This document shows, one piece after another, positions 6,001 to 34,782 of a stretch of DNA of 64,000 bases (position 1 is the stretch's first letter; each line of letters begins with the position of its first letter). Source of the stretch: an uncultured Aliarcobacter sp. (GTDB taxonomy: Bacteria > Campylobacterota > Campylobacteria > Campylobacterales > Arcobacteraceae). The stretch is from positions 1 through 64,000 of the forward strand of contig CAXXLV010000002.1 in assembly GCA_963664305.2 (NCBI GenBank), written 5' to 3'. The position numbers and the translations under genes were made by a program. The notes under the pieces were generated by a model. That model made no database searches. It was not told the origin of the DNA and saw nothing but the letters and a program-made list of their open reading frames with translations.

Positions 6001-8285
6001 TCTGGAGCAATAAGCTTCGATGATGCTACTCCAACAGTAAATGTAGGTGTAACAGAAACAACAATACCAACATTAACAACACAAGATGCTGATACAATAG
6101 ATACAAATACAGATGTAGTATCAGATACAGCAAGTGCATCGTTTGCAACTCTATTTACATTAACTCAAGATATGGGAGCAGATGTAGGTGGAACGGCAGC
6201 AACATTAAGTTATGCATTATCACTAGCAGAAGGTACAACAACAAGCTTAACAAGTAATGGAGAAGAGATAACATTATCTTTAGTAAATGGTGTTGTAACA
6301 GGTACAGTAGCAGGAGTAACAGAGCCAATCTTTACAGTAGCAGTTGATGCAAGTACAGGAACAGTAACTCTAACTCAAAATGGACCAATCGATCATTTAA
6401 CAGAAGTAGATGGAAATGATGCAGATACATTAACAGATGATAATTCAGTAACAAATGTAGGATTATTATTAAATGAAACTGGAGCAATTAACTTAACAGC
6501 AAGTGCAACAATCACAGATGGAGATGGAGATCAAAGAACAGATTCAGAAACAATAGATATTTCTGGAGCAATAAGCTTCGATGATGCTACTCCAACAGTA
6601 AATGTAGGTGTAACAGAAACAACAATACCAACATTAACAACACAAGATGCTGATACAATAGATACAAATACAGATGTAGTATCAGATACAGCAAGTGCAT
6701 CGTTTGCAACTCTATTTACATTAACTCAAGATATGGGAGCAGATGTAGGTGGAACGGCAGCAACATTAAGTTATGCATTATCACTAGCAGAAGGTACAAC
6801 AACAAGCTTAACAAGTAATGGAGAAGAGATAACATTATCTTTAGTAAATGGTGTTGTAACAGGTACAGTAGCAGGAGTAACAGAGCCAATCTTTACAGTA
6901 GCAGTTGATGCAAGTACAGGAACAGTAACTCTAACTCAAAATGGACCAATCGATCATTTAACAGAAGTAGATGGAAATGATGCAGATACATTAACAGATG
7001 ATAATTCAGTAACAAATGTAGGATTATTATTAAATGAAACTGGAGCAATTAACTTAACAGCAAGTGCAACAATCACAGATGGAGATGGAGATCAAAGAAC
7101 AGATTCAGAAACAATAGATATTTCTGGAGCAATAAGCTTCGATGATGCTACTCCAACAGTAAATGTAGGTGTAACAGAAACAACAATACCAACATTAACA
7201 ACACAAGATGCTGATACAATAGATACAAATACAGATGTAGTATCAGATACAGCAAGTGCATCGTTTGCAACTCTATTTACATTAACTCAAGATATGGGAG
7301 CAGATGTAGGTGGAACGGCAGCAACATTAAGTTATGCATTATCACTAGCAGAAGGTACAACAACAAGCTTAACAAGTAATGGAGAAGAGATAACATTATC
7401 TTTAGTAAATGGTGTTGTAACAGGTACAGTAGCAGGAGTAACAGAGCCAATCTTTACAGTAGCAGTTGATGCAAGTACAGGAACAGTAACTCTAACTCAA
7501 AATGGACCAATCGATCATTTAACAGAAGTAGATGGAAATGATGCAGATACATTAACAGATGATAATTCAGTAACAAATGTAGGATTATTATTAAATGAAA
7601 CTGGAGCAATTAACTTAACAGCAAGTGCAACAATCACAGATGGAGATGGAGATCAAAGAACAGATTCAGAAACAATAGATATTTCTGGAGCAATAAGCTT
7701 CGATGATGCTACTCCAACAGTAAATGTAGGTGTAACAGAAACAACAATACCAACATTAACAACACAAGATGCTGATACAATAGATACAAATACAGATGTA
7801 GTATCAGATACAGCAAGTGCATCGTTTGCAACTCTATTTACATTAACTCAAGATATGGGAGCAGATGTAGGTGGAACGGCAGCAACATTAAGTTATGCAT
7901 TATCACTAGCAGAAGGTACAACAACAAGCTTAACAAGTAATGGAGAAGAGATAACATTATCTTTAGTAAATGGTGTTGTAACAGGTACAGTAGCAGGAGT
8001 AACAGAGCCAATCTTTACAGTAGCAGTTGATGCAAGTACAGGAACAGTAACTCTAACTCAAAATGGACCAATCGATCATTTAACAGAAGTAGATGGAAAT
8101 GATGCAGATACATTAACAGATGATAATTCAGTAACAAATGTAGGATTATTATTAAATGAAACTGGAGCAATTAACTTAACAGCAAGTGCAACAATCACAG
8201 ATGGAGATGGAGATCAAAGAACAGATTCAGAAACAATAGATATTTCTGGAGCAATAAGCTTCGATGATGCTACTCCAACAGTAAA
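1..8285 (+). repeat. Tandem 561-bp (187-codon) intragenic repeat, 14 full copies plus a 431-bp partial copy within the window
   Basis: ATGGGAGCAGATGTAGG recurs at 1, 562, 1123, 1684 ... 7855. Identity ends at 8285 (ccaacagtaaa-c versus -t). Translated copies look identical. Confidence 0.97.
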
Positions 8286-18532: not shown

Positions 18533-18877
18533 ATGACAAAAAAAATTGATTTAAATATTGAAGAAAATATTGAAAAATGTCCCGTTGAAACAGCACTTGA
18601 TGTACTTGCGGGTAAATGGAAAATATTAATATTATGGTATTTAAGAGCGGAGAAAAAAAGATTTAGTGAATTACAAAAAATGCTTCCTAGAACTACACAA
18701 AAAATGTTAATTCAAAAATTAAGGGAGCTTGAAGAAGATGGAATTGTTCATCGGGAAGTTTATCCTGTTGTTCCTCCAAGAGTTGAATATTCATTAACTG
18801 AATATGGAGAAACTTTAAAACCTATATTAAAACAATTATATTTATGGGGTGAAATTCACAAGAATGAATATAAATAG
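18533..18877 (+). CDS. HxlR-family winged-helix regulator with an N-terminal Cys
   Basis: [15 protein letters not shown]...RFSELQK...LRELEEDG...PPRVEYSLT; divergent from the oxidoreductase gene. Confidence 0.93.
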
Positions 18878-19233: not shown

Positions 19234-20250
19234 ATGACAGAAAAAATATATGATATTATAATTATAGGTGGTGGACCAGGAGGAATTGGTACTGCAATTG
19301 AAGCATCAGCCCATAATATTGGGAAAATTTTACTTATTGAAAAAAGTGATAATCATTCAAATACAATTAGAAAATTTTATAAAGATAATAAAAGAGTTGA
19401 TAAAGATTATAAAGGTCAAGTAACTGAACTTCAAGGTAATGTTGAATTTTATGATGGTACTAAAGAAACTACATTAGATTATTTTAATGATTTATTAGAT
19501 AGTGAGAAAATTGATTCTTCATTTAATACTGAAATTGAAAAACTTGTAAAAATTGAAGATGGATTAATGGAAATTCATACTTCAAATGGAATTTTTAAAA
19601 CTAAAAATACTGTTATTGCTATTGGTAAAATGGGTAAACCAAATAAACCAATAGATTATAAAATTCCAGTATCAATTGGAAGACAAGTAAATTTTAATCT
19701 TGATTCATGTTCTTCAAATGAAAAGATACTTGTAGTAGGAGGAGGAAATTCTGCTGCAGAATACGCCTATGACTTAGCAGAGCAAAATAATAATGTTACA
19801 TTAGTTTATAGAAAAGCTGAGTTTTCAAGATTAAATAAATTAAATGAAAATTTATTATATAAATATTATGGTGAAGAAAAATTAAGACTTAGAATGAACT
19901 GTGATATAGAGAATCTAGAAAATGAAAATGGGAAGATAAAAGTTCAATTCAATGATGGATATTCAGTTTTATATGACAGAATAATTTATGCAATTGGAGG
20001 AACAACACCAGTTGATTTTTTAAAAAGTTGTGGTGTAGATATAGATGAGAGTGGGAAACCAATTTTTAATGAACATCATGAAACATCAAATGAAAATGTA
20101 TATGTAGCAGGGGATATAGCAATGATGTCTGGTGGATCTATTGCAATAGCGTTGAATCATGGATATCATATTGTAAATAATATTCAAAGAAAGAGTGGTA
20201 AAATTTTTTCTCATACTTATAAGTTTCAAGCAAATGAAATAGATGTTTAA
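19234..20250 (+). CDS. FAD/NAD(P)H oxidoreductase of the thioredoxin-reductase fold lacking CxxC (FqrB/YpdA-like)
   Basis: IIGGGPGG, TIRKFYKDNKRVD, VVGGGNSAAEYA and YVAGDI...GGSIAIALNHG motifs. Confidence 0.8.
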   Translation: MTEKIYDIIIIGGGPGGIGTAIEASAHNIGKILLIEKSDNHSNTIRKFYKDNKRVDKDYKGQVTELQGNVEFYDGTKETTLDYFNDLLDSEKIDSSFNTEIEKLVKIEDGLMEIHTSNGIFKTKNTVIAIGKMGKPNKPIDYKIPVSIGRQVNFNLDSCSSNEKILVVGGGNSAAEYAYDLAEQNNNVTLVYRKAEFSRLNKLNENLLYKYYGEEKLRLRMNCDIENLENENGKIKVQFNDGYSVLYDRIIYAIGGTTPVDFLKSCGVDIDESGKPIFNEHHETSNENVYVAGDIAMMSGGSIAIALNHGYHIVNNIQRKSGKIFSHTYKFQANEIDV

Positions 20251-20326
20251 AAAAATATTAGGGAATAGGGACAAATTTTGAACAATGGAATATATAAAAA
20301 TTTTGGTTTATTCAAAATAAATATCT

Positions 20327-20359
20327 TGCAAGTTTTATGACAGAATTGAATGTTACTAT
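20327..20359 (+). promoter_or_regulatory. Regulon motif copy 1 with -10 (usp-tctD-tctE)
   Basis: TGCAAG-TTTTA-TGACAG-aattgaaTGt-TACTAT. Confidence 0.8.
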
Positions 20360-20389
20360 TCTTTTAACGTTAGATTAAAAGGATTTTTT

Positions 20390-21241
20390 ATGAATTATAA
20401 AAAAATGTTCTTCCCTATTGGTGGTGGAGAAGAGTTAGAAGAGAGAATTTATGGAGCCTTGTTAGTTGCAAAATATTTTAAAATAAATTTAGAAATTTTA
20501 AAATGTGGACCTAAATATAATCCTAATATGTATAGAAATTTATCTATACCAGAAGATCTTTTTAAAAAAATTGATGAAGTTGTAGATAAAAAATATAAAG
20601 ATGAATCTTTAGAGTTTAATGAACTTTTTGAGAAAAAAGTTAAAGAAATTGATATTAAAATATCTCCAATCCCACTTGATAGTGAAGCAAGTGTTTATTT
20701 AAAAGATAATAAAAAAGGACTTAGAAGTAATATTATTGAACAAGAATCAAAGTTTTGTGATTTAGTAATAGCAGCAGCTCCTCCTTTAGGAGTTACAACA
20801 TCTACATTTGAAACAGCTGTATTAAAAAGTGGGAAATCAGTACTAATGATTCCAAGAATTATGAAAATATTCTCTACAAAATCAGTAATTATTGGATGGA
20901 ATAACTCTCCTGAAGCTTCAAGAGCATTAACTACTTCAATTGGTATTTTAAAAGAAGCACAAAGAGTACATATTGTTTCGTCAGAAGAGTATGTTGGGGG
21001 AACTAATATCATAAATGATTTATTAGATTATTTGAAATGTCATAAAATAGATGCTACTTATGAAATCGTTAAAACAACAAAAATTCCAGGTCAAGCACTT
21101 TTAAATGCAGCATTAGATGGTAATTTTGATTTAATAGTTGCAGGTGCTTATGGACATAGAGGTTTAAAAGAGATGATGTTTGGTGGAGCGACTAGATATC
21201 TTTTAGAAAAATCGACATTACCTATTTTTATGTCTCACTAA
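20390..21241 (+). CDS. Universal stress protein (tandem USP domains)
   Basis: IGWNNSPEASRAL and DLIVAGAYGHRGLKEMMFGGATRYLL...PIFMSH. Confidence 0.92.
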   Translation: MNYKKMFFPIGGGEELEERIYGALLVAKYFKINLEILKCGPKYNPNMYRNLSIPEDLFKKIDEVVDKKYKDESLEFNELFEKKVKEIDIKISPIPLDSEASVYLKDNKKGLRSNIIEQESKFCDLVIAAAPPLGVTTSTFETAVLKSGKSVLMIPRIMKIFSTKSVIIGWNNSPEASRALTTSIGILKEAQRVHIVSSEEYVGGTNIINDLLDYLKCHKIDATYEIVKTTKIPGQALLNAALDGNFDLIVAGAYGHRGLKEMMFGGATRYLLEKSTLPIFMSH

Positions 21242-21260
21242 ATTGTGATATACTTTAGCC

Positions 21261-21917
21261 ATGAAAATATTATTAATTGAAGATAATGAAACCTTAGCAA
21301 ATGGTATCTCTAGAAAATTAAAAGAAATAGGTTACCTTGTTGATATTTTTCATGATGGAGAAAATGGACTTTATTCTCTTGAAACAGCAATTTATGATTT
21401 ATTGATTTTAGATTTAGGATTACCTAATATTGATGGAATTGATATTATTAAAAAATTAAGAACATCTCAAAAAAATTTACCGATTTTGGTTATTTCTGCA
21501 AGAGATAAACTTGACCAAAGAATCTTAGGTCTTGATACAGGAGCAGATGATTATTTGTGTAAGCCTTTTGAACTAGATGAAGTAATAGCAAGGGTTCATG
21601 CCCTTTTGAGAAGAAGCAAAAACCAAGTTTCAAATATTATTAATTATAATGATTTATCATTTAATACTCAAACACTTATATTAACTAAAAATTCAGAATT
21701 GATAGAATTAAGTAAAAGAGAATTAAAAATATTTGAATTCTTATTACAAAATCAAAATGCAATAGTAAGTAAAGATAATATTGTTGACCATATTACAACA
21801 ATTGATGATGAATTTAACCCAACAGCTGTTGAAACATATATTTCAAGATTAAGAAAAAAACTTGGGGATTCAATAAATATAAAAACTGTGAGGGGCCTTG
21901 GCTATATGATGAACTAA
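21261..21917 (+). CDS. tctD: OmpR-family response regulator, TctD-like
   Basis: LLIEDN, LDLGLP, GADDYLCKPF, AVETYISRLRKKL and TVRGLGY motifs; tct context supports the symbol. Confidence 0.8.
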   Translation: MKILLIEDNETLANGISRKLKEIGYLVDIFHDGENGLYSLETAIYDLLILDLGLPNIDGIDIIKKLRTSQKNLPILVISARDKLDQRILGLDTGADDYLCKPFELDEVIARVHALLRRSKNQVSNIINYNDLSFNTQTLILTKNSELIELSKRELKIFEFLLQNQNAIVSKDNIVDHITTIDDEFNPTAVETYISRLRKKLGDSINIKTVRGLGYMMN

Positions 21918-21918
21918 T

Positions 21919-23289
21919 ATGAAAGAGATACCATCAATTCGTACTCAATTAACAAAGTGGTTAATATTTCCATTAGGTTTATTTACTTTAATACTTTTTA
22001 TATATTTAAATAATTTTTTGAAAAATAGAGTTAATGATTTTTTTGATAATCGTTTATATGCTTCTGCAAAAAGTATAGAAGATTATATTGGGGTTGAAAA
22101 TGGGAAATTAATAATTGATTTCCCTAATTTTTCTGTTGATTTTTTATCCCTTACTCAAAAAGGTCTGGTCTATTATTCTGTTGTAACTGAAAGTGGAGAA
22201 GTTTTAGTTGGACAAAAAGATTTATTTGAAAAAAAAATTCTTTTAAAAGAAGATAAAAGATTTTATTATAAGACCTATGATAATGAAAAGTTAAGAGTAA
22301 TCTCTTATAAAGTTTTTTTTATAGATTCAAACAAAAAATATTCTGCATATATAACCATTGCTGAAAGTATGGATGAAAGAAAAGAAAATATAAAAGAAGT
22401 TATAAATACTGTTCTAATGATTATTTTAATTGTTTCTTTGTTTACCATTATAATTACACTAATTGCAGTAAATAAGGGATTAGAACCACTTCAATTACTC
22501 AAAAATAAAATAAAACAAAGAGATTCAAGAGATTTAACTCCATTGAAATTTAATGCTCCAAAAGAAATTGAAGATGTTGTTAATAGTATTAATATCTTGC
22601 TTGAAAGAAGTAGAGATAATATTGAATATATAGAACAATTTAATTCAGATGTTTCTCACCAATTAAGAACACCTTTAGCTGAAATGAAAATGGAGTTAGA
22701 CCATTTTTTTGATAAAAAAGATGAAAAGTTTATTATTTTAAACTCTCATATTAATAATATGTCACATATTACAGAACAACTATTATTGTACGCAAAAACA
22801 AATCCAAATACAATAAATTTAGCTAGATTAAAAAAAGCAAATTTAAATGAAATTTGTAAAAATTATAGTATTAAAACAGCTCCTAGAGTTTATAAAAGAG
22901 GTTTTGAATTTGCATTTGAAGATATAGATGAACAAATATTTATAGAAACAGATACAATTATTTTAGAAAGTATGCTTGATAATATTATTAATAATGCGTT
23001 ACATTATGCTGTAGATAAAGATGGTAACCCAATGGGAACAATAACTTTATCCCTAAAAAGACACAATAATACAATCTGGTTAAATGTTAAAGATGAAGGA
23101 TATGGTGTAGAAAAAGAAAACTTAAAAAATATTTTTCAAAGATATTATAGAGTTGATTCTTCAAAAACTGGTTCAGGTTTAGGACTTAGTATTGTAAAAC
23201 AAATTGCTACATTACACAATGCAGAAGTTATTGCTTCAAATAATAATGGTTTAGAAATATCTATAATATTTAAATATCCAATGAAATAG
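21919..23289 (+). CDS. tctE: Sensor histidine kinase, TctE-like
   Basis: Two TMs, FDNRLYASA N-terminal segment, SHQLRTPL H-box, NIINNALHY, GSGLGLSIV. Confidence 0.8.
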   Translation: MKEIPSIRTQLTKWLIFPLGLFTLILFIYLNNFLKNRVNDFFDNRLYASAKSIEDYIGVENGKLIIDFPNFSVDFLSLTQKGLVYYSVVTESGEVLVGQKDLFEKKILLKEDKRFYYKTYDNEKLRVISYKVFFIDSNKKYSAYITIAESMDERKENIKEVINTVLMIILIVSLFTIIITLIAVNKGLEPLQLLKNKIKQRDSRDLTPLKFNAPKEIEDVVNSINILLERSRDNIEYIEQFNSDVSHQLRTPLAEMKMELDHFFDKKDEKFIILNSHINNMSHITEQLLLYAKTNPNTINLARLKKANLNEICKNYSIKTAPRVYKRGFEFAFEDIDEQIFIETDTIILESMLDNIINNALHYAVDKDGNPMGTITLSLKRHNNTIWLNVKDEGYGVEKENLKNIFQRYYRVDSSKTGSGLGLSIVKQIATLHNAEVIASNNNGLEISIIFKYPMK

Positions 23290-23291
23290 TT

Positions 23292-24254
23292 TTATTTATC
23301 AAATAAATAGTTATAAGTTTCAAATAAATTATAGGTATTAAGAAGAACTTCTTTTGATTTTTTATCTCCTATCCAAGTATAACCTATATTTTTTTCTTTT
23401 AATATTTTTTGATTATTTCTTTGTGCTAAAACTTTTTCAAGAGCTTTTTCTAATATTAAATATCTTTGTGGGAAATCTTCTTTAAATTTTTTTGAAACAG
23501 CAAAACCTCTCATTGGACCACTGATAATTGGTAAAATAATATTTGTATCTTTAATAGCTTCATTAAGTGTAGGAGCATCCCATCTTCTTGATCTCTTATC
23601 TGAAATTACAGCTAAAGGTTTAATCTCATTTCTATATTTTTCACTTCCTTGAGCTGCAATTACTAAAAGATCAACTTTTGATTCAAAAAGTGCAGTTCTT
23701 GCTAATTCTCCTCCTGCAAAAAAATTAAATTCAACTTTTTCAAATGGAATATTAAACTTTTCAAGTAAAAGTTTTATCATTAAATGACCACTTGATTTAT
23801 AAATAACTGCAATTTTAATTTTTTTTGGACTATTTTGTATTTCAGATAATAGTTCTTTTATTGAATTGATTTTTGAATCTTTGTTTACAGATATTAAATC
23901 GTAATCAAACCATTGAATATTTATGAAATGAAAGTCATCAAGAGTATATTTTGATTGTCCACTTAATACTGTATTTGCAAGATATGGAGAAAAAGCTGAA
24001 GCAAAAATAGTATAACCGTCACTTTCTTGAGCTAATACATAATTTGCAGCATCTAATGAGGCATTTGCTTTTATATTTATTACATTTATAGAAGTATTTA
24101 ACTCTTTTTCCAATAAAGTAGCCATATTTCTAGCCATTCTATCACTACTTCCACCTTTTCCTAAACCTACAACTAATGTTATAGGTTTAGAAGGGTAATT
24201 TTGGGCAAATAAAATTGTATTTAATAAAAAAAGAATACTTAATAATATTTTCAT
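23292..24254 (-). CDS. TctC/Bug-family periplasmic binding protein (second, divergent copy)
   Basis: Signal peptide; YPSKPITLVVGLGKGGSSDRMAR, DGYTIF and DAPTLNE motifs. Confidence 0.88.
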   Translation of the reverse strand: MKILLSILFLLNTILFAQNYPSKPITLVVGLGKGGSSDRMARNMATLLEKELNTSINVINIKANASLDAANYVLAQESDGYTIFASAFSPYLANTVLSGQSKYTLDDFHFINIQWFDYDLISVNKDSKINSIKELLSEIQNSPKKIKIAVIYKSSGHLMIKLLLEKFNIPFEKVEFNFFAGGELARTALFESKVDLLVIAAQGSEKYRNEIKPLAVISDKRSRRWDAPTLNEAIKDTNIILPIISGPMRGFAVSKKFKEDFPQRYLILEKALEKVLAQRNNQKILKEKNIGYTWIGDKKSKEVLLNTYNLFETYNYLFDK

Positions 24255-24276
24255 TTAAAACTCCATTTTTATTATA

Positions 24277-24309
24277 ACCTTAATATATAAAGCTGTCATT
24301 AACCTTGCA
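24277..24309 (-). promoter_or_regulatory. Regulon motif copy 2 with -10 (second tctC)
   Basis: Minus strand TGCAAG-GTTAA-TGACAG-ctttatatat-TAAGGT. Confidence 0.7.
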
Positions 24310-24310
24310 T

Positions 24311-25066
24311 TTATTTAAGCATCAGTAAAATAGATTCAATTACTAATTTACCTCCAAGAAAAATAATTACTATTTTTATGATTTTTTTAAATAATTCATC
24401 ATTACTTTTATCTAACAGTTTTTTACCAAAAAGTGTTCCAAAATATGAAAAAACAATTAGTATTAAAATCAAATTTATCCAAGGAGTATAATCAAATCCT
24501 AAACCACCAAAAATAATAGCTTTTCCTAAGTTCTGAAAAGAAATACACCAAGCTAAAGTTCCTACAATTATATGACGATTTGTCAAAAATGAGCTTAAAA
24601 ATATTCCTAAAAGTGGTCCCATTACTCCAACAAACATTGTTAAAAAACCTGTAATTGCACCAAAAATTATTATTTTAATATTTGAAATATTATCTATTTT
24701 AAAATTAGGAATTAAAGTTAAAATAATAATACCAAGCCCTAAAAATAGTTTTAAAAAATATTCAGGAAGTACAATCAAAAATTGTGTAGCAAAAAAGTAT
24801 CCAAAAAGTGTACCAAACATAAAAAGAAAAAAGAATTTTTTATAAAAGGAATTTCTAAACATTATTGCACGCAATATTCCAGAGCCTGCTTGAATTATTG
24901 CATGAATAGATAAAAGAGCTGTTACTGGGATGACTAAACTCATCGCCCCAATAACAACTAATCCTCCTCCTGTTCCAACAGATGTAGAAATTGCTGCACC
25001 TAAGAAACAAAAAAGGATTAATAAAAACAAATCAAAAAGTGTAATTGAATTTGGAAGCAGTTCCAT
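24311..25066 (-). CDS. TauE/SafE (TSUP) family membrane transporter
   Basis: About 8 TMs with duplicated GTGGG / GVMGP motifs. Confidence 0.8.
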   Translation of the reverse strand: MELLPNSITLFDLFLLILFCFLGAAISTSVGTGGGLVVIGAMSLVIPVTALLSIHAIIQAGSGILRAIMFRNSFYKKFFFLFMFGTLFGYFFATQFLIVLPEYFLKLFLGLGIIILTLIPNFKIDNISNIKIIIFGAITGFLTMFVGVMGPLLGIFLSSFLTNRHIIVGTLAWCISFQNLGKAIIFGGLGFDYTPWINLILILIVFSYFGTLFGKKLLDKSNDELFKKIIKIVIIFLGGKLVIESILLMLK

Positions 25067-25068
25067 TT

Positions 25069-26136
25069 TTATACATAAACCTCACCTTCAAATAAAAGTC
25101 TAGCTGTTCTTGTTGTCATTCCTTCTACTTTACTTACATCAAGACTTGGAAAATTAACTCCTACTTGTGTTGTTCCTGATGGATTTTCAATTTTAACTAT
25201 ATGATTACCTAAAGTTAACTCTTGTGGATTAATTTGATTTAATATTGTTCCTTTTATAAAAGAACCAACTGCAATACAAAAACCTGCTGATACAGCAATT
25301 GCAGGATGTGCAGTTGTTGGTGTAAAATATCTAATGTTCATATCTCCATCAAATTTAGGCTTGCTAACTGCTGCAATTTTTGGAATAACATTTCCTTTAC
25401 AAGAACCAAGACCCATAGCTTGCGAAGCTTCTTCTCTAATTTGTTCTAGTTTTTTAAATAACTCTTTATTTGAATCTAATACCTCTGGTGTTTCATAACC
25501 TGTAATTCCTACATCTTGGGCTCTTACAAAAACAACAGGCATACTAATATCTAAACAAGTTGCTTCAACTCCACAAAAAGTATCAATTACATTTTTTGTT
25601 GGTAAATATGAACCTGTTTTTCCACCAGTTATATTTTTAAAAAATAGTTTAATTGGAGCAGCCGTTCCAGGAACTCCTGCAATTTCCATATCACCTTTAT
25701 AAGTTATACATCTATTAGGTGTTTTAATTGTTTGAGCAATTGTAGCACCTGTATTTACATCATAGATATTTACGATAGTTTCATCTTCTTCAATATTTAC
25801 TAATCCTCGCTCAAGAGCAAAAACTCCAACAGCTGTTAATATATTTCCACAAGTTGGCTTATCATCAACAATTGGTTGGTCAACCATAACTTGGATAAAT
25901 TTATAATCAATATCTATCCCATCTCTTTTTGATGGAGAAATAATTGCAACTTTCGTTGTAACAGAAGTTGCTCCTCCAATACCATCAATTTGTCTTATAT
26001 CAGGAGAACCCATAATCTTTAATAAAAGATTATGTCTCTCTTGTGTATTACTTGGTAAATCTTTATCTAAAAAATAAGCACCTTTTGAAGTTCCCGCTCT
26101 ATACATCATACATTTTATTCTATTTAAATCATTCAT
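25069..26136 (-). CDS. PrpF-family isomerase (4-oxalomesaconate tautomerase / aconitate isomerase-like)
   Basis: MYRAGTSKGAYF, MGSPDIRQIDGIGGA..TTKVAII, CGNIL, GVPGTAAPI and RTARLLFEGEV motifs. Confidence 0.9.
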   Translation of the reverse strand: MNDLNRIKCMMYRAGTSKGAYFLDKDLPSNTQERHNLLLKIMGSPDIRQIDGIGGATSVTTKVAIISPSKRDGIDIDYKFIQVMVDQPIVDDKPTCGNILTAVGVFALERGLVNIEEDETIVNIYDVNTGATIAQTIKTPNRCITYKGDMEIAGVPGTAAPIKLFFKNITGGKTGSYLPTKNVIDTFCGVEATCLDISMPVVFVRAQDVGITGYETPEVLDSNKELFKKLEQIREEASQAMGLGSCKGNVIPKIAAVSKPKFDGDMNIRYFTPTTAHPAIAVSAGFCIAVGSFIKGTILNQINPQELTLGNHIVKIENPSGTTQVGVNFPSLDVSKVEGMTTRTARLLFEGEVYV

Positions 26137-26140
26137 TTTA

Positions 26141-28165
26141 TTAACCTTTTAATATTAAATCACCAATTAGTCCAGTAGGAAGTGTCAACGATAATAAGTG
26201 ACACATAAACCATAAAGAACCAATTGAAAGAGCTGCTATAATCGATGTTTTTAACCATGACGATTGTATTTTAATTCTAATAGTAGCTATAATCATAATT
26301 GTTACAGAAGGAATAAATCCTAAAATCCACGTACCAACTAAAAAAATAGGAAGAATTAAAAAGCTTTTCCATGTCTCTTTCCAATATGTTGTTACTTCAC
26401 CATTTTCAATAATACTCGCTCCTAAAACTTCTTTTTGTTTAGTTTTTGATACTAATTGAAATGCTAATAAAATTGAAAAAACAATCATTATTGAACTAAT
26501 AACTATTGGGAAAATTCCCCCTAAAAAATCATGTGGAATAGAATCAAATAAAGCATAAGCTGCAAATATAATTAATCCAATAACCATAAATAATTCACCA
26601 GAAAAGAATGAATAAGTGTAATTAGTTTTGTTTTCTTCTAAATCTTCTTCAGATAATTCACCATTTTTTATTCTATTTTCTTTTTCTAATTTCTCTTTTT
26701 TATCACTTCTTTTTTTGAAGTAAGCACTTAATCCAATTGAAGCAATCATAAATAGTATGATTCCAATTACACCTGGTCTATATAACATATCCCATGAATA
26801 GAATTGAACAGCTTGATAATAATAAGTTTCAATAGTACCAGCTAAAATAAATCCAATAAGAAGAGCTGGTCTTGGCCAATCAAAGTGTTTAAATAAAATA
26901 CCTAATGCACCAATCACTATTAATAAAATTAAATCTTCTAAACTTCTAGTTGCTTGAAGTGCAGCAAAAAAGATAATCATTAACATAATAGGAGCAACAT
27001 AACCATAAGGAATTTTTGTAATTTTTGCAATATGATTTGCTAATCCTAAACATACTAATGTACCAACAACGTTTGCAATAGCAAGTGACCAAATAATCGT
27101 ATAAGATATTCCTAAATTTGAGCCAACCATTGCAGGTCCTGGTTCAATTCCTAAGATAGTTAATCCACCTAAGAATACAGCCATAGAACCACTTCCAGGA
27201 ACTCCTAAAAGTAATGTAGGAATTAATCCTCCACCTTCTTTTGCATTATTCGCACATTCAGGTGCAATTACACCTCTAATATCACCTTTACCAAATTGAC
27301 TTTTATCTTTTGATGTTTGAACAACATGTCCGTATGCAATCCAGTCAACAACACTTCCACCAAGTCCTGGAATTGCTCCAATCATTGCTCCCATTGGTGC
27401 ACAACGAGCAATAATCCATTTTGCTGCCCAAGTATCTTTTACACCTTGAAACCAAGAACCACTTAATTTTCCATTAGTTGATATTTGTTGATTTTTAACT
27501 AATAAATCAATAATTTCAGGAATAGCATAAACACCAAGTCCTAAAATTACTAATTTAATTCCATCAAATAAATAGTAACTATCAAAAGTCATTCTCCATT
27601 CACCAGTTGCAGGTGCACTTCCAATACAACCTAATAGTAAACCTACAGAAGCTGCGATAAAACCTTTATATAAGCTTTTACCACTTAAAACTCCCACCAT
27701 ACTAAGACCAAAAATTCCTAATATAAATAGTTCTGCAGTACCTAATTTTAGGATGATGCCTCTTGCAAAAACAATAAAAAATGTCAAAATAATAGCACCT
27801 AATAATCCACCAATTAAAGATGAAGTAAAAGCAGCTGCTAAAGCCCTTGAAGCTTGCCCTTTTTGAGCTAATGGATAACCATCTAAAACTGTTGCTTGAG
27901 AAGCAGATGAACCTGGAATCCCCATAAGTACTGATGTAAAAGTATCAGATGTTGGAATAACAGCTACCATCCCAATTAACATAGCAAGAGCAGATGTTAC
28001 ATCCATTCCATAAATAAAAGGTATCATTATAGAAAAACCTACAATTCCACCAAGTCCGGGAAGAATCCCAACAATAATTCCTAAAATCACCCCACCAAAT
28101 AAATAAAGCATATGTTGAACTGACATAAGTTCATTAAAGGCACTAAATAACGCATCTATAGCCAT
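26141..28165 (-). CDS. tctA: Tripartite tricarboxylate transporter permease TctA with a fused C-terminal TctB-like domain
   Basis: GILPGLGG, GIPGS..S.ATVLDGYPLAQKG and GVIAPECANNA motifs; 674 aa, with a charged linker then about 4 extra TMs ending LPTG. Confidence 0.88.
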   Translation of the reverse strand: MAIDALFSAFNELMSVQHMLYLFGGVILGIIVGILPGLGGIVGFSIMIPFIYGMDVTSALAMLIGMVAVIPTSDTFTSVLMGIPGSSASQATVLDGYPLAQKGQASRALAAAFTSSLIGGLLGAIILTFFIVFARGIILKLGTAELFILGIFGLSMVGVLSGKSLYKGFIAASVGLLLGCIGSAPATGEWRMTFDSYYLFDGIKLVILGLGVYAIPEIIDLLVKNQQISTNGKLSGSWFQGVKDTWAAKWIIARCAPMGAMIGAIPGLGGSVVDWIAYGHVVQTSKDKSQFGKGDIRGVIAPECANNAKEGGGLIPTLLLGVPGSGSMAVFLGGLTILGIEPGPAMVGSNLGISYTIIWSLAIANVVGTLVCLGLANHIAKITKIPYGYVAPIMLMIIFFAALQATRSLEDLILLIVIGALGILFKHFDWPRPALLIGFILAGTIETYYYQAVQFYSWDMLYRPGVIGIILFMIASIGLSAYFKKRSDKKEKLEKENRIKNGELSEEDLEENKTNYTYSFFSGELFMVIGLIIFAAYALFDSIPHDFLGGIFPIVISSIMIVFSILLAFQLVSKTKQKEVLGASIIENGEVTTYWKETWKSFLILPIFLVGTWILGFIPSVTIMIIATIRIKIQSSWLKTSIIAALSIGSLWFMCHLLSLTLPTGLIGDLILKG

Positions 28166-28208
28166 AAAATCTCCTTTAAAGTAAATTCTTACTTTGAATT
28201 CTGAATGA

Positions 28209-28241
28209 AGATTAACATTTTTAGCTGTCTTGAAACTTGCA
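28209..28241 (-). promoter_or_regulatory. Regulon motif copy 3 with -10 (tctAB-prpF-tauE)
   Basis: Minus strand TGCAAG-TTTCA-AGACAG-ctaaaaaTGt-TAATCT. Confidence 0.8.
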
Positions 28242-28291
28242 ATTATTGTTTTTATATTTGATGAATTAAGGGGAAATTTTTGTATAAAAAG

Positions 28292-28325
28292 AAAAAGTCA
28301 TTTTCTAAAAGAAAATGACTTTTTT
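28292..28325 (-). terminator. Intrinsic terminator after tctC
   Basis: aaaaagtcattttct-aaa-agaaaatgacttttt. Confidence 0.75.
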
Positions 28326-28347
28326 AAGTATATATTTTTGATTAGAA

Positions 28348-29427
28348 TTAGAATTTAACTTTATAATTTTCCATTAGCCAATTAGTAATCCATTCTTTAT
28401 CTTTTTTATCAACAGTTGTTGCAGTATCTTTTAATTTATTTGCATTTTCTCCAATAGTTTGTTCATATATTCCTAAATGTAAATCACTTTTTTCTTTAAA
28501 GTCAGGAGCTGTTACAACTTTTTTAAGTGCATTTGTATAAGTTTCAAGTACATCAGGAGATACATCTTTTGGTAATACTAACATTTTTTGAGAAGGGAAA
28601 CTTGCTGTAAATAATGCTTTCCATGCTTTAAAAGATGTATCATTAAGAGATTTTCCACTTGTTTTTTCATATACTTCAGCAAATGTTGGTAATTCAGGGA
28701 AACTAGGATCTCTTTGAATATTTCCTTTATCATCTAATATACCCCATGAAAATAAAGGTACAGATTTTTCTTCAGTCATTGCAGGTAAAACTTCTTTTAA
28801 ATATGCAGAACTAGTTTGAAAATCAATATTTGTTTCACCTCTTAAAAAGGCTAATCTACCTTCTTTTCTTCCTTTCATTCCAAATACTGGTTGAACATTT
28901 AAGTCAAGTATTTTAAAAGCTAATAAAGGAATTAAATCCATTGATGTAGGACCTTGACTTCCAAATTTCAATTCAGCATTTTTTAGCTTATCAAAATCAT
29001 TTATATCTTTTATACCTAAAGAAGATGATACATAAACTACTCCACCTGTAGGAGAAGATAGTACAGCATACCAATCTTTAAAATCATATTTAATTCTATC
29101 ATCACCTAAAACAAAAGGTATTTGTGTTGATGCTGATGATGCAAAAATTGTTAAACCATCTTTCGTAGCTTTTTCTGCAAAATAGTTTGCACCTTTAGTT
29201 GATCCTCCACCTGGCATATTTTTTATAATAATATTAGGTTTTCCTGGAAGTGCTTGAGATAATAATGGTGCATAAAATCTTCCCCATTGGTCAGTTCCAC
29301 CACCAGCATTGTATGGCATAATCCATTCAATTGTTTTACCTTCAAAATTTACTTCTTTTGCATTTAGTGTATTTACTAACATTCCTAATGCCAAACCTGA
29401 AGTCACAAGTGTTTTAATCATTTTCAT
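28348..29427 (-). CDS. tctC: TctC/Bug-family periplasmic binding protein
   Basis: Signal peptide; PYNAGGGTD, NMPGGGS..GAN, RLAFLRGE and PELPTF motifs; lies upstream of tctA. Confidence 0.88.
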   Translation of the reverse strand: MKMIKTLVTSGLALGMLVNTLNAKEVNFEGKTIEWIMPYNAGGGTDQWGRFYAPLLSQALPGKPNIIIKNMPGGGSTKGANYFAEKATKDGLTIFASSASTQIPFVLGDDRIKYDFKDWYAVLSSPTGGVVYVSSSLGIKDINDFDKLKNAELKFGSQGPTSMDLIPLLAFKILDLNVQPVFGMKGRKEGRLAFLRGETNIDFQTSSAYLKEVLPAMTEEKSVPLFSWGILDDKGNIQRDPSFPELPTFAEVYEKTSGKSLNDTSFKAWKALFTASFPSQKMLVLPKDVSPDVLETYTNALKKVVTAPDFKEKSDLHLGIYEQTIGENANKLKDTATTVDKKDKEWITNWLMENYKVKF

Positions 29428-29474
29428 CTTAAATCCTTTTTTTAAGTTTTATTATCTAAGAAAGATATGAGGGA

Positions 29475-29507
29475 AGATTAACATTGAATTCTTTCATGAA
29501 ACTTGCA
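29475..29507 (-). promoter_or_regulatory. Regulon motif copy 4 with -10 (tctC)
   Basis: Minus strand TGCAAG-TTTCA-TGAAAG-aattcaaTGt-TAATCT. Confidence 0.8.
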
Positions 29508-29550
29508 TAATATTTAATTTTTTTATTATCAAGAGTTATCAAAAAATCTT

Positions 29551-29583
29551 TGCAAGTTTCTTGACAGTAATAGAAGTTATATT
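29551..29583 (+). promoter_or_regulatory. Regulon motif copy 5 with -10 (MCP)
   Basis: TGCAAG-TTTCT-TGACAG-taatagaagt-TATATT. Confidence 0.8.
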
Positions 29584-29608
29584 AATAGAAAATGAAAAAA
29601 GGATTTTT

Positions 29609-31915
29609 ATGTTTAAATATAAAGATATAAATATTAAAATGAAAATGATTTTAATTTCAATCATTTCTTTATTAATTGTTGTAGTTATTATAGGTGGTAT
29701 TTCTGTTGAAGAAGCAAAAAAAGCACTAATGAAAAATAATTATGATAGTTTAACTTTCTCAAGAGATAATAAAACTCAGCAAATTGAAAATCTTTTTAAT
29801 CGAATGGTTAATGATATAGAAGTTTTATCAAGTAGTAAAACAGTCGATCAATTAGTTTATGATTTAACTAGTTTATATTCTCAAATGGATATAGATACAA
29901 AAGATAAATTTCCAATAAATGATTCAATGGTTAAAGATACTATTTCTTCAAGTGAGAATTTTTTTCAAAGTTATATTAAAAAGTATAATTATAATGATAT
30001 CTATTTAATTGATGTACAATCAGGGCAAATATATTATACAGCTAAAAAAAATGCTGACTTTGGAGAAAATTTAAAATCTGGAAAATTGAATAATTCTTTA
30101 CTAGCTGATGTATGGAAAAAAACCATTGAAAACAATGCAACTACTTTTGTAGATATGAAACCTTATGAAATTAATGACAATAAACCTGTAATGTTTTTAG
30201 GAACACCTGTATATGAAAATGGATATAAAGAGGATGGAATAAAAGCTGTATTAGTATTTCAAATTGGAAATAATGATATAAATAAAATAATGAATTTTAG
30301 GAAAGGTTATGGACAAACACAAGAAGATTATTTGGTTGGTAATGATTATTTAATGAGAAGTGATAGTTTTTTAAGTCCAAAAACTCATTCAATAAATTCA
30401 TCTTTTTCATCTCCTCAAAAAAATAGTATAAAAACAAATGCAACGATAAATGCATTTAAAAATCAAACAAATACAGAAATTATAAAAGGGTATGATAATT
30501 ATAATGTTTTATGTGCATACAGTCCTATCAATATTTCAAAAGATATAACTTGGGCAATTGTTTCTGAAATTAGTGAAGATGAAGTTTTAATTACACCACA
30601 TTCTTTGAGAACAGAGATTATTATAGTTTCATTTATTGTTTTATTGTCTTTGTCACTTTTTGTATATTTCATAATAAATAAAAATATAATATCACCTCTT
30701 AATAACTTTCAAGAAGGATTATTAAATTTCTTTAAATATCTAAATAGAGAAAAGGATGATGTCTCTCTTTTAAACATAGTTTCAAAAGATGAAATAGGAG
30801 TTATGTCAAAAATCATAAATGAAAATATTTTAAAAATAAAAGATAACATTGAGGAAGAAAAAGAGCTTATTAAATCAACTATTTTTGTATTAAAAGAGTT
30901 TGAACAAGGTGATTTATCACAAAGAGTTACTAAAAAATCTTCAAACTCTTCATTGAATGAATTAACAAATTTATTAAACCAAATGGGAATAAATTTAGAA
31001 ATGAATATCAATAATATACTTAATATATTAGAACAATATTCAAATTATAATTATTTGAATAAAATCAACACGAATAACTCTAAAAAACATCTTCTTCAAT
31101 TATCTGAAGGAATAAATTATTTAGGTGATTCAATTACTCAAATGTTAATAGAAAATAAAAAAAATGGTTTGGTTTTAGATTCTAATAGTGATATATTAAT
31201 TAAAAATGTAAATCTTCTAAATAATAATCTAAATAATTCTGCTGCTTCACTTGAAGAAACAGCTGCTGCTGTTGAGCAAATAACAAGTAATATAACATCA
31301 AATACACTAAGTGTTAAAAATATGTTTGAATATACAGAAATATTAACTAATTCAGTAAATGAAGGAAAAAATTTATCGTTAAAGACTGATTTGGCAATTG
31401 ATATAATGAATGAGCAAATTCTTACAATAAATAATAGTATTGACATGATTGAACAAATTTCATTTCAAACAAATATATTATCTCTTAATGCAGCTGTTGA
31501 AGCAGCAACTGCTGGTGAAGCTGGACGTGGTTTTGCAGTTGTTGCAGCTGAAGTGCGAAATTTAGCTTCAAGAAGTGCTGAAACAACAAGAAAAATTAAA
31601 GAATTAGTATCAATTGCTATATTAAAAGCAAATGATGGAAAAGAGATAGCTAAAGAGATGATTGCTGGTTATAACACTGTTGATGAAAATATTTCAAAAA
31701 CGATTGAATTGATATCACAAGTTAATTTTTCTAGTAATGAACAACAAAAAGGAATAGAGCAAATAAATGATGCAATAAATTTATTAGATCAAAAGACTCA
31801 AGAAAATGCTGCAATATCCAATAAAACTTATGATGTTGCAATACAAACGGATAAATTAGCAAAGTTAATTGTTCAAAAAACAAATGAAAAAGAATTTAAT
31901 GGAAAGGATATTTAA
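29609..31915 (+). CDS. Methyl-accepting chemotaxis protein with a large Cache-type periplasmic domain
   Basis: Two TMs; [27 protein letters not shown]. Start moved from the track's TTG at 29561 to ATG 29609 (AAGGA RBS; the TTG lies inside the promoter motif). Confidence 0.92.
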
Positions 31916-31935
31916 AAGTCAAAATTTGTATTAAA

Positions 31936-31968
31936 TGCAAGTTTCATGACAGTGTTCAATGTTAGGAT
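31936..31968 (+). promoter_or_regulatory. Regulon motif copy 6 with -10 (porin)
   Basis: TGCAAG-TTTCA-TGACAG-tgttcaaTGt-TAGGAT. Confidence 0.8.
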
Positions 31969-31997
31969 AACCTTGTTAAATTAACAAGGAGAGAAAA

Positions 31998-33215
31998 ATG
32001 AACAAATTAATTAAAAAGAGTTTAATTGCTACTTTAGCAGTAACATCAATTGCAACATCATCATTTGCAGCTGATACATTAGCTGATGCTTTTAGTAATG
32101 GAAAAATAAAAGGTGATATTAAATCATACTATTTTGATGAAAATTATGATTCAGCAAAAACTTCTGATAATAGTATTTGGGTAAATGGTGGAAGTTTAAA
32201 TTATGTTACAGATAGTTTTAATGGTGTAAAACTAGGTGCAACATTACAAACTTCACATGTTGGAACTATTGATGATGACACAGCTAAACAAGCAAAATTT
32301 ATGGATGCATCAGGTTCAGTTTTATCTGAGGCTTATTTAGAATATAAATATGCAAATACAAGCTTTAAAGGTGGTAGACAATTTATCTCTTTACCTTTAA
32401 TCAATGGTTCAGGTTCAAGACTTATAAAAGAATCATTTGAAGGTTACTTTTTAGCTAATAATGATATTCCAAATACTTTAGTATCTTTAGGAAAAGTTAC
32501 AAAATATCAAACAAGAACAGATAGTGTAACAAGTGGAACAAATGGTGCATCTTTTTCAAATACAGAAGTAAATGATGGTGATGTTGGTGGATTTAATAAA
32601 ATAGGTACAGATGGTGCTGTTTCATTATATATTAAAAATGATTCTATAAATAATTTAACTATTCAAGGTCATTATGTAGATTTTATTGATGAGGTTAAAG
32701 ATTTATATGTAGATGCTACTTATAAATTTGGTGGAGATTTTAAACCATTTGTAGCAGCACAATATTATGATTCAAATTATGATAAAGCTACAGTTAAAGA
32801 TAGCTCATTATATGGTTATAAAATTGGGGCTACATTCTTTACAGTAGATTTTCATGCTGCTTATACATCAGCAGATGATAAAGGAAATGTAAATAGAGGT
32901 ATAGGTGAAGCTGCAACTGCATCATTTACTTCTTCAACAACAACAACTGGAAACTATACAGCGGGTACTGATTCATGGCAAATTGGTGCTTCTAAGAAAT
33001 TTGGAAATTTAACTACAAAAATTTCTTATACTGATAGTGATTCTTTATTAGTAAAAAATGATTTAAAACAAACATATTTAGGTGCACAATATAAATTCTC
33101 TGGGGCACTTAAAAATTTAGCAATGTCAGCTGATTATACTATCTATGAAAATGGAAAAGGTAATGAATCTAAAGATAAAGATGAGTTAAGATTAAAAGCA
33201 ATTTATTCTTTTTAA
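31998..33215 (+). CDS. OprD-family outer membrane porin
   Basis: Signal peptide; ADTLADAFSNGK, LSEAYL, GGRQFI..PLI motifs; C-terminal ELRLKAIYSF beta-signal. Confidence 0.85.
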   Translation: MNKLIKKSLIATLAVTSIATSSFAADTLADAFSNGKIKGDIKSYYFDENYDSAKTSDNSIWVNGGSLNYVTDSFNGVKLGATLQTSHVGTIDDDTAKQAKFMDASGSVLSEAYLEYKYANTSFKGGRQFISLPLINGSGSRLIKESFEGYFLANNDIPNTLVSLGKVTKYQTRTDSVTSGTNGASFSNTEVNDGDVGGFNKIGTDGAVSLYIKNDSINNLTIQGHYVDFIDEVKDLYVDATYKFGGDFKPFVAAQYYDSNYDKATVKDSSLYGYKIGATFFTVDFHAAYTSADDKGNVNRGIGEAATASFTSSTTTTGNYTAGTDSWQIGASKKFGNLTTKISYTDSDSLLVKNDLKQTYLGAQYKFSGALKNLAMSADYTIYENGKGNESKDKDELRLKAIYSF

Positions 33216-33306
33216 TAAAATAAATAAAAAGTTTGAAGAAATTCAAGCTTTTTATATTTGTGACTAAAATTTCGAAATCAAAAAAAAGCGAACAAAAGGA
33301 GAGATA

Positions 33307-33813
33307 TTAATATCTCTTCTTTAAATTACTACTATTTAATTCTTCAGAACAAACAATTATCCCATCTTCATCAGCATATAAAAAGTCGCCACTATTAAAA
33401 GTAACACCTCCAAATTTAAGTTCAATGTTTCTTTCTCCTTTATTTTTTTCAAAATTTCTTAAAGGACAAGTTCCTAATGCAATAAGACCAATTTTAAATT
33501 TATTAGTTTCTTTAATATCTCTTACATATCCATTTATAATAATTGCTTTATAGTTATTGTTTTCCGCAAATAATGATAGTTTATCTCCTACAATACCATA
33601 AAATTCTCTATCAACATCAACAACTACGATTTTCTCAGTTCCATCTTCATCTTTCAGCATAGAAAGTAAGTCCCAATTACTTTTGTTTAATTTGATAGTT
33701 GTTATTTGTCCGAAAAAACCAACTAAACCACCATAATTTCTGAATTCTGATGACAATACTTGTATGTTTTTATCTTGATTTTCATCACATAAATCTGCAG
33801 TGCTAAAATACAT
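33307..33813 (-). CDS. RraA-family protein (putative HMG aldolase / oxaloacetate decarboxylase)
   Basis: STADLCDE, NYGG...F.GQITTI, VGD, INGYVRD and GDFLYADEDGII motifs. Confidence 0.88.
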   Translation of the reverse strand: MYFSTADLCDENQDKNIQVLSSEFRNYGGLVGFFGQITTIKLNKSNWDLLSMLKDEDGTEKIVVVDVDREFYGIVGDKLSLFAENNNYKAIIINGYVRDIKETNKFKIGLIALGTCPLRNFEKNKGERNIELKFGGVTFNSGDFLYADEDGIIVCSEELNSSNLKKRY

Positions 33814-33835
33814 ATAGATACTCCTTTTTTTCTGA

Positions 33836-33868
33836 ATAGTATAATATTAATCTTTCAGTAAGCTTGCA
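33836..33868 (-). promoter_or_regulatory. Regulon motif copy 7 with -10 (rraA-like gene)
   Basis: Minus strand TGCAAG-CTTAC-TGAAAG-attaatatta-TACTAT. Confidence 0.75.
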
Positions 33869-34384
33869 AATTAGTTTATTAATTTAAGTTTTTATTAATT
33901 ATTAAATAGGGAAAAGTGAGAATTTATAAAGTTATATTTTTAAGTATTAAAGATTATTTATTAGATTTATTGTTCTATCAACAGAATTTTTTGCTAATTG
34001 ATAGTTATTTTAAGAATATAATATTTTTCCAAATAAAGTTTTAAAAATAGTATTTTTTAGACAAGAATAATATTTATTGAAAAACATTATTCGTAATAAA
34101 TATACTCTTTTAAAGAAATTATTTTTAACATCTGTTTTCCGACACCCTAGTTTAAAATCAAAAAAAGTACAGAAAAAGCACAAAATGCCATGAAATAAGT
34201 ATATGATAAATACTATCGGATTCTAATGTAGTACGAAAATTAAGAATAAAGAGTTTTTCGTATACTTAGATTTTAATATAGAAAGTGAAGGATTGATTAA
34301 ATATGTAATAGAAGAAAGAATGTTTTGGAACTAAGAATTAATATAATAAATTATTATAAAAATATTATAATATTTTTTAATAAA

Positions 34385-34782
34385 TGGTGGAGATGTGCGG
34401 GATCGAACCGCAGTCTTAAAACAGATCATAGAAGCGTCTACATGCTTAGCAAAGTTGAAAGATTTCACTTCATGACAGCTCAACTTCCAAAAGCAATCAC
34501 AAAGCTAAGATTTAAAATTTCTCTTTAAAGCCCAATCACAACCTCAAAGATAATCTATCTAGGGTGAACCAGCGATAATCTACATAGATAGAATCTGTAG
34601 TGCTAGCCTCCGAAGACTCAAGCCGTTAGGCGAGTCAATAAGTTGTTAAACTTACGCAGCTTTTGCGTAAGCTGGAGCGTAATTTGTATTGTTTGCGTCT
34701 AAAAAAAATGAACCGCGTAACGGCATGTTCAGGCCGACATGCAACTAATACTCACTGCTCTAATCGATACCAAGTCATCCCC
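34385..34782 (-). ncRNA. ssrA: tmRNA
   Basis: 5' GGGGATGACTTGGTATCGA; 3' GACTGCGGTTCGATCCCGCACATCTCCACCA; tag frame 34696-34652 reads ANNTNYAPAYAKAA*. Confidence 0.96.

Follow-up and report, generated by a model that had tools for sequence, protein, structure and literature searches.

A direct-repeat box at seven promoters of an Aliarcobacter tct gene cluster is very probably the operator of a TctD-like response regulator

The two-component systems TctDE of Pseudomonas aeruginosa and Salmonella and BctDE of Bordetella combine an OmpR-family regulator with a 2CSK_N kinase, and their genes lie beside those for TctABC and a porin. According to a review (PMC5812351), Salmonella TctD and Bordetella BctDE are activators, and citrate-bound BctC, a TctC-type protein, is proposed to dock on the Bordetella kinase BctE. 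On the DNA side, the PhoB pho box, the PmrA/BasR box and the CiaR box consist of two hexamers separated by N5, with an 11-bp period, that replace the -35 element. The CiaR site lies 10 bp upstream of the -10 (PMC4863584), a solved activation complex shows the pmra-box in the place of the -35 (PMC10570014), and strict spacing is described at PhoB promoters (PMC10294691). We have analyzed a stretch of 64,000 nucleotides (the window) from an uncultured Aliarcobacter sp. (GCA_963664305.2, contig CAXXLV010000002.1), in which a tct gene cluster carries the element TGCAAG-N5-WGAMAG, here called the box, at seven promoters (Table 1). A preliminary description of this DNA had taken the box for the operator of the TctD-like regulator encoded in the cluster, and sequence comparisons make it very probable that this neighbouring two-component regulator docks there. 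Before opdH/tctC, the TctDE systems have a direct repeat that belongs to the same family and agrees in spacing and position, but their first half-site is TGAAAG, whereas that of the window is TGCAAG. The window regulator falls into a separate clade and is 38-39% identical to Salmonella and Pseudomonas TctD, with the E-x-Y-x-x-R helix in common. Its cluster has seven such promoters instead of one or two, and the regulator's own promoter is a sense box. In addition, the cluster encodes a fused TctAB, two TctC proteins (also a difference from BctC-BctE), a universal stress protein (Usp), PrpF-like and RraA-like proteins and a chemoreceptor.

The repeated signal is real. A pattern scan of the window finds seven copies, at 20327 (+), 24293-24309 (-), 28225-28241 (-), 29491-29507 (-), 29551 (+), 31936 (+) and 33852-33868 (-), on the strands first reported, and 100 shuffled sequences contain a mean of 0.03 copies, with none of the 100 reaching 7. 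Allowing up to one mismatch to the 17-mer adds no site in the window, in agreement with the earlier remark that the element had not been noticed elsewhere in it. Each copy is a hexamer-N5-hexamer direct repeat with an 11-bp period (TGCAAG-nTTnn-TGA(C/A)AG) at the -35 position, in the style expected for an OmpR-family site. The TAnnnT hexamer said to start exactly 10 nt 3' of the box is found at 7/7 boxes, any other spacer from 4 to 18 giving 0-2/7, and the extended TG was counted at the claimed four (20327, 28241, 29507 and 31936). All boxes lie 55-80 nt 5' of an ATG with a GGA-type ribosome site; hexamers and phase are constant among them while flanks and spacers vary. The statement that every transcription unit is headed by a box needs a correction: the seven promoters are right, but those of tctC2 and the porin are internal. 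The tauE stop is followed after 2 nt by the tctC2 box, and the stop of the methyl-accepting chemotaxis protein (MCP) after about 20 nt by the porin box, with no terminator-like site listed at either; a terminator-like hairpin does lie upstream of the tctAB box, at 28324-28292. A generic promoter scan of the window was uninformative (109 sites against 111 in shuffles), and contigs from four of 16 listed RNA runs, all of mixed communities, are mostly less than 95% alike to the window and cannot show start sites or expression. The same register is read from the sequence of E. coli phoB (TTTCAT-N5-TGTCAT-N10-CATAAT) and eptA, where N10 leads to a weaker -10-like hexamer.

Genome-wide (2.78 Mb, 27% G+C), two further exact 17-mers occur outside the cluster (C1:397936 and C2:179063), both without a TAnnnT at spacer 10. 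A position matrix trained on the relatives' sites only, used with a cut-off of 12 bits, gives 24 matches of at least 12 bits in the genome, with the porin box as the top score (31.6 bits). The intergenic matches are the seven cluster sites and no others, which answers the concern that the motif might be equally frequent in unrelated intergenic DNA. Since these are the sole intergenic matches, the predicted regulon is local to the cluster.

The box follows the regulator through the Arcobacteraceae. An orthologue of the regulator is present in 24/150 family genomes (58-82% identity; next best 45%), and in a cross-count done by hand on presence alone, the composite pattern occurs in 22/24 genomes with the orthologue and in 6/126 without it; a reversed control gave 0. 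Both orthologue loci that lack the pattern have variant boxes (L019, L039). From 38 Campylobacterota loci, overlapping and related, we collected 72 distinct non-coding sites chosen by box alone. TAnnnT stands at spacer 10 in 71/72 of them, other spacers giving 0-10/72, and a TG at -15/-14 is seen in 51/72. Gene order is variable in these relatives, and the box stays at operon heads, preceding tcuAB, TRAP, ABC or DASS genes where these adjoin the regulator. The tctC2 box is present in L003 and L006 and was not found in L001 and L004, and the chemoreceptor box occupies the same site in G531 and G532. The co-occurrence and the persistence through rearrangements and transporter changes argue for the proposed operator of the local OmpR/PhoB-family regulator, lying over the -35 region, and the sense box at the head of the regulator's own operon of usp, response regulator (RR) and histidine kinase (HK) genes points to the autoregulation suggested before. 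With the kinase in just 6/400 genomes of a phylum sample, the system is patchy in the phylum; named loci with the same cluster belong, among the matches listed, to Arcobacteraceae and Sulfurospirillum, and the full seven-site set is found in 3/44 genus genomes.

Three observations in relatives may be added. The closest kinase (74%) and regulator (83%) outside the genus come from another family (G308, L022:16514-18542), where a TRAP-prpF-tcuAB operon would be under their control. Some relatives encode a 156-aa winged-helix protein without a receiver under its own box variant (L004:15142-15612). In G864 a lone box precedes a short rraA-like remnant (L221:8458-8673) with no cluster in the 14 kb examined, perhaps a decayed cluster copy.

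Beyond the Campylobacterota, TGCAAG-N5-TGACAG-N10-TAnnnT recurs in identical form before tctC of Vibrio pelagius and Halomonas. A scan of species genomes returned at least 128 loci, and 61 of the 128 listed have a gene of this cluster type (hand count); most others are taken as chance matches in coding sequence of unrelated organisms, for instance that of L053, overlapping a LacI-type gene at its start. At the named tctD loci of Salmonella and Serratia the sequence is TGAAAG-N5-TGAAAG-N10-TAACAA, and the usp-RR-HK gene order is found in Azospirillum too. Each of 15 Pseudomonadales kinase loci examined has one box variant, one of which faces an operon that we take to be TRAP-like. A strict box-N10-TA pattern has exactly one match in 21/27 proteobacterial loci, the named Salmonella and Serratia loci among them, with 0-4 for other spacers and a shuffle mean of 0.23 overall; the Thalassospira box has a spacer of 11. 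In a Pseudomonas-type genus the pattern occurs in 33/34 genomes, mostly at two sites each (control matches, 2), and in the five genomes examined the gene behind the second site encodes a CitMHS citrate transporter. Among the matches listed, one metagenome-assembled genome has seven near-identical ones at contig ends (L052, L108, L118, L121, L168-L170), probably an insertion-sequence end unrelated to TctD, and one Cellvibrionaceae genome has three (L104, L114, L149), of which one lies at tctC and the other two may be further regulon members.

An experimental anchor comes from P. aeruginosa, although its TctD is a homologue 39% identical to the window regulator and is read across here to the boxes of G833, a genome for which the sources identify TctD and CitA as being of P. 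aeruginosa type. Measured by hand, one G833 box occupies the stretch 93-109 bp before tctD and another that 157-173 bp before citA. In the tables of PMC8599809, the two top TctD summits of each strain in DNA affinity purification sequencing (DAP-seq) are one before tctD, at 105 bp (PAO1) and 99 bp (PA14), and one before citA, at 124 bp (PAO1) and 158 bp (PA14). This overlap, together with the variant boxes at named tctD loci, lends the operator proposal support by analogy. In G833 a sense box with N10-TAGGAT faces opdH, for whose induction TctD is needed (PMC4513871, bioRxiv 2022.07.01.498397, PMC10865840); the citA box is reversed and without a -10, and citA expression is reported as unaffected by TctDE (bioRxiv 2022.07.01.498397). 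The orientation of the box is in keeping with the set of genes that TctD activates. The CitMHS gene of G833 also has a sense box and is probably PA14_72170, picked among citrate-induced transporters with orthology judged from position.

The window regulator has receiver and winged-helix domains with a phospho-accepting Asp, and an adjacent cognate kinase with its His. Its best NCBIfam match is TctD (NF012023) at 192 bits, under the cut-off of 337, which Salmonella TctD passes (456) and the P. aeruginosa-type TctD also misses (291). The label TctD-like given to it before is therefore fair in the broad sense, with a 2CSK_N kinase and tct transporter genes adjacent and the box in common, but the protein stands outside the NCBIfam equivalog and in a marine branch apart from Salmonella/Pseudomonas TctD. 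The architecture is already known, and the window regulator fails the strict TctD model yet appears to work like TctD. Its kinase carries the sole PF08521 (2CSK_N) match of the genome. A modelled complex of the periplasmic domain of the kinase with TctC2, computed from alignments of our own, scores 0.82, the best of three controls 0.00; the mark applied to this score is reached by 116/157 solved pairs and 2/215 mismatched pairs, and at least 92% of contacts recur between runs, with a partner confidence (pLDDT) of at least 90. The model supports TctC2 as the sensing partner of the kinase. The tctC2 gene stays beside the kinase gene even where the regulated transporter is TRAP (L022/L023; not in L010), which suggests a split between sensing and transport for the two TctC copies.

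Taken together, we regard it as very likely that the element is the operator of the TctD-like regulator of the cluster, and that the phosphorylated regulator binds it in place of a -35 and activates, the case for activation being the fixed 10-nt spacing from box to -10. The mechanism is conventional, a textbook OmpR/PhoB-type switch. A periplasmic tricarboxylate of the citrate, aconitate or tricarballylate class would be bound by TctC2, which would then dock on the periplasmic domain of the kinase, and the kinase would phosphorylate Asp51 of the regulator. Two DNA-binding domains may then sit head-to-tail on the direct repeat and assist sigma-70 RNA polymerase at all seven promoters. The predicted output is more porin, binding proteins, permease, isomerase, aldolase-like protein, chemoreceptor and, as positive feedback, regulator. 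With variant half-sites, the same box would serve as a general TctD-family operator in Campylobacterota and Proteobacteria. As to the inducer, the box heads tcuAB in relatives, and in Thalassospira tct, isomerase and tcuAB genes stand together.

Several points weigh against this reading. The relatives are not independent of each other, and no box was seen at the regulator locus L028/L029. The strict proteobacterial pattern was fixed after inspection of the same 27 loci, six of which miss it (L042, L171, L172, L173, L206, L207), L173 because its promoter lies in L175. In P. aeruginosa the PAO1 citA summit is 33 bp from the box edge, the listed DAP-seq peaks of PAO1 (4) and PA14 (3) include none at the CitMHS box, and the strongest IHMA87 TctD peak lies at another locus (PMC8599809). 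The partners folded with the kinase domain were TctC2 and the three controls. We infer a tricarboxylate inducer from the gene neighbours (tct, tcuAB, PrpF-like), and a profile search of the window genome finds no tcuA above cut-off; as the genome has the isomerase and no such tcuA, citrate or aconitate is a likelier inducer than tricarballylate. Finally, the opdH operon is up by 3.5-6.6 log2 in a tctD transposon mutant (opdH log2 fold change +6.6, PMC4513871, table S3), and an older repressor model for TctD is cited in bioRxiv 2022.07.01.498397. These last two findings would suit the same protein acting at the same site mainly as a repressor, keeping the -35 region blocked in the absence of inducer, or as a dual regulator, as would tctC2, where the second half-site is usable as a -35, 17 nt from TATAAT, and this promoter (ATGACA-17-TATAAT) fits as well. 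However, a repressor needs no fixed phase, yet spacer 10 is kept in 71/72 sites. Moreover, deletion mutants are reported to fail in opdH induction, induction is likewise lost for Salmonella tctD and Bordetella bctDE (PMC5812351), and an outward-reading transposon could account for the opdH value of +6.6. We therefore hold predominant repression to be improbable.

Other readings leave the regulator out altogether. That the box is bound by the LysR at 11452, the HxlR at 18533 or a global factor seems very improbable: both genes are within the window, and a LysR gene stands beside tcuAB in some relatives, but the two genes lie outside the block common to G531 and G532 (20309-33908), the box co-occurs with the regulator orthologue and changes with its helix, and no other intergenic box sites exist in the genome. 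It is extremely unlikely that the element is an alternative-sigma promoter read on the opposite strand. A sigma-54 promoter has GG at -24 and GC at -12. The reverse strand of the box ends in CTTGCA, TGGCA-N6-TTGC is matched by 11/72 of the relatives' sites, and rpoN is present (G000:C1:749514-749972, G000 being the window genome), unlike in A. butzleri, from which it is missing according to its genome paper (PMC2147049). We rejected this candidate all the same, because GG 10 nt before GC is found at 0/7 window sites and the orientation is wrong, such promoters facing away from the genes at five sites. The TAnnnT is fixed on the gene side of the box, the TTGC half is lost in the proteobacterial variants, and a search of the genome finds one sigma-70 region 2 match only. 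Chance in DNA of 27% G+C, or a leftover of duplicated intergenic sequence, has a negligible probability and is already refuted, as no shuffle reaches seven copies, hexamers and phase are kept while flanks and spacers differ, and the box is kept across phyla.

Under the operator reading, the half-sites seem to change with the recognition helix of the regulator. Most loci combine the helix ETY with TGCAAG, and three Arcobacteraceae loci combine EIY with TGAAAG, like Pseudomonas (EIY) and Salmonella (ELY). Paralogous regulators with the helix SSVETYVSRIRKK have a variant of their own, TGTCAG/TGCCAG, and a genome holding both regulator types keeps the variants distinct (L003 and L038). This rule is just a hint, because exceptions exist (L206, L173, L189, L026) and independent origins are few. 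In quick trees, the Campylobacterota regulators (99) fall inside a marine gammaproteobacterial clade (99) that stands apart from Salmonella/Pseudomonas TctD (96-97). The join of the TctD family against QseB and BasR is weak: one quick tree leaves it unresolved and the other gives 84% in the SH-like approximate likelihood ratio test (SH-aLRT) for 31/32 rows.

A far wider proposal, with all its parts taken jointly, appears to us evenly poised between right and wrong. It holds that a single code, (T/C)G(A/C/T)(A/C)AG-N5-(T/C)G(A/C/T)(A/C)AG-N10-TAnnnT, not spelled out before, delimits the entire TctD-family regulon in both Campylobacterota and Proteobacteria; that helix-matched half-sites (ETY with TGCAAG, EIY/ELY mostly with TGAAAG, SSVETY with TGTCAG/TGCCAG) insulate paralogues; that orientation settles the P. 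aeruginosa TctD dispute and predicts CitMHS as a direct target; and that the window genome carries the most elaborate form seen, a seven-promoter ssrA cassette with a TctC sensing copy and a newly recruited chemoreceptor. A text stating a TctD box consensus was not found in the literature searched, in which the figure logos of PMC4513871 (Fig. 3B) and probably PMC8599809 (Fig. 2A) were not seen, and no TctD motif was found in PMC8041468, PMC7318608 or PMC5507510; the P. aeruginosa motif may already be in print. In the papers searched, which did not include subscription articles on Salmonella, Bordetella and Xanthomonas, we found neither the cross-phylum reach nor a Campylobacterota regulon, and it appears that the sequence code of the TctD family has not been put in writing so far. 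The operator would give a widespread, thinly studied regulator family a searchable signature and make regulons and likely substrates readable from genomes, so that any transporter bearing the box, be it a tripartite tricarboxylate transporter (TTT) or of the TRAP, ABC, DASS or CitMHS type, becomes a candidate tricarboxylate carrier. The conflict over P. aeruginosa TctD as activator or repressor becomes testable on a defined 33-bp element, and OmpR-family specificity could be studied on the natural series of paralogues that differ in helix and box.

Table 1. Predicted promoter boxes and genes of the tct cluster and the adjoining ssrA gene, in window positions.
Feature	Position	Strand	Evidence and remarks
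Box TGCAAG-N5-TGACAG, N10, extended -10 TG-N-TACTAT	20327..20359	+	usp-RR-HK promoter, putatively autoregulatory; kept before usp in relatives
Universal-stress-family protein, 283 aa	20390..21241	+	PF00582, E 4e-7
OmpR/PhoB-family response regulator, TctD-like, 218 aa	21261..21917	+	PF00072 + PF00486; Asp51; recognition helix TAVETYISRLRKK
Sensor histidine kinase, TctE-like	21919..23289	+	PF08521, PF00512, PF02518; 2CSK_N periplasmic domain, His247
TctC-family binding protein 2 (TctC2)	23292..24254	-	PF03401; predicted kinase sensing partner
Box TGCAAG-N5-TGACAG, N10, -10 TAAGGT	24277..24309	-	internal tctC2 promoter
TauE/SafE (TSUP) membrane protein	24311..25066	-	PF01925
PrpF-family isomerase (YbhH / oxalomesaconate isomerase-like)	25069..26136	-	NF033377, 417.8 bits, cut-off 440
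Fused TctA-TctB permease	26141..28165	-	PF01970 + PF07331
Box TGCAAG-N5-AGACAG, N10, extended -10 TAATCT	28209..28241	-	tctAB-prpF-tauE promoter
TctC-family binding protein 1 (TctC1)	28348..29427	-	PF03401, weak, below cut-off
Box TGCAAG-N5-TGAAAG, N10, extended -10 TAATCT	29475..29507	-	tctC1 promoter
Box TGCAAG-N5-TGACAG, N10, -10 TATATT	29551..29583	+	chemoreceptor promoter, divergent from tctC1
Methyl-accepting chemotaxis protein (MCP)	29609..31915	+	PF00015; dCache-like periplasmic domain
Box TGCAAG-N5-TGACAG, N10, extended -10 TAGGAT	31936..31968	+	porin promoter
OprD-family porin	31998..33215	+	PF03573
RraA/HMG-aldolase-family protein	33307..33813	-	NF006875 and TIGR01935, above cut-off
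Box TGCAAG-N5-TGAAAG, N10, -10 TACTAT	33836..33868	-	rraA-like gene promoter
tmRNA gene ssrA	34385..34782	-	3' end bounds the variable region holding the cluster

Some of the gene products deserve comment. TctC1 has merely local similarity to TctC2, is 49% identical to a Thalassospira transporter protein and is the probable transport partner. The PrpF-family isomerase matches the PDB entries 6otv (E 1e-88) and 6p3j (E 3e-84) and could be an aconitate isomerase. For the MCP the likeliest start is ATG 29609, which is preceded by an AAGGA Shine-Dalgarno, and not TTG 29561 inside the box. Its periplasmic domain has atlas look-alikes at 0.96, with dCache_1 in 35-43% of their cluster members; no solved structure matches it by sequence, and among the loci compared it occurs in the window genome, G531 and G532 only.

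The cluster lies next to ssrA. The closest genus relatives match the window at 95-97% only from 34385 rightwards, and two close relatives have different, integrase-led islands at the ssrA 3' end instead (L219:2354-3454; L220:2328-3560); in this genus ssrA is a hotspot for integration. The block common to G531 and G532 begins shortly before the first box and stops shortly after the last, and in G532 a 14-bp copy of the ssrA 3' end flanks it on either side (L192:2153 and 17447). In the window genome no repeat of this ssrA end was found apart from 12 chance letters, and no integrase lies beside the cluster in the window. We infer a self-contained mobile cassette. Inside its left bound, G532 has ParE/Phd and RelB/YafQ-type toxin-antitoxin genes (L192:16099-17298). 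The FNR-like gene at 19234 failed as an empty-site marker, having a paralogue on C1 and best matches elsewhere in relatives. This FAD oxidoreductase gene (19234-20250) and the HxlR gene (18533-18877) each have a C1 paralogue at 77-78% DNA identity, so that the region further left of the cluster may be acquired too. At the far left of the window (1-11406), a 3801-aa open reading frame with DUF5801 domains starts at the first base of the contig; it has a repeat with a 561-bp period, 15 copies being seen by a motif match with 2 mismatches, and probably encodes a giant secreted adhesin.

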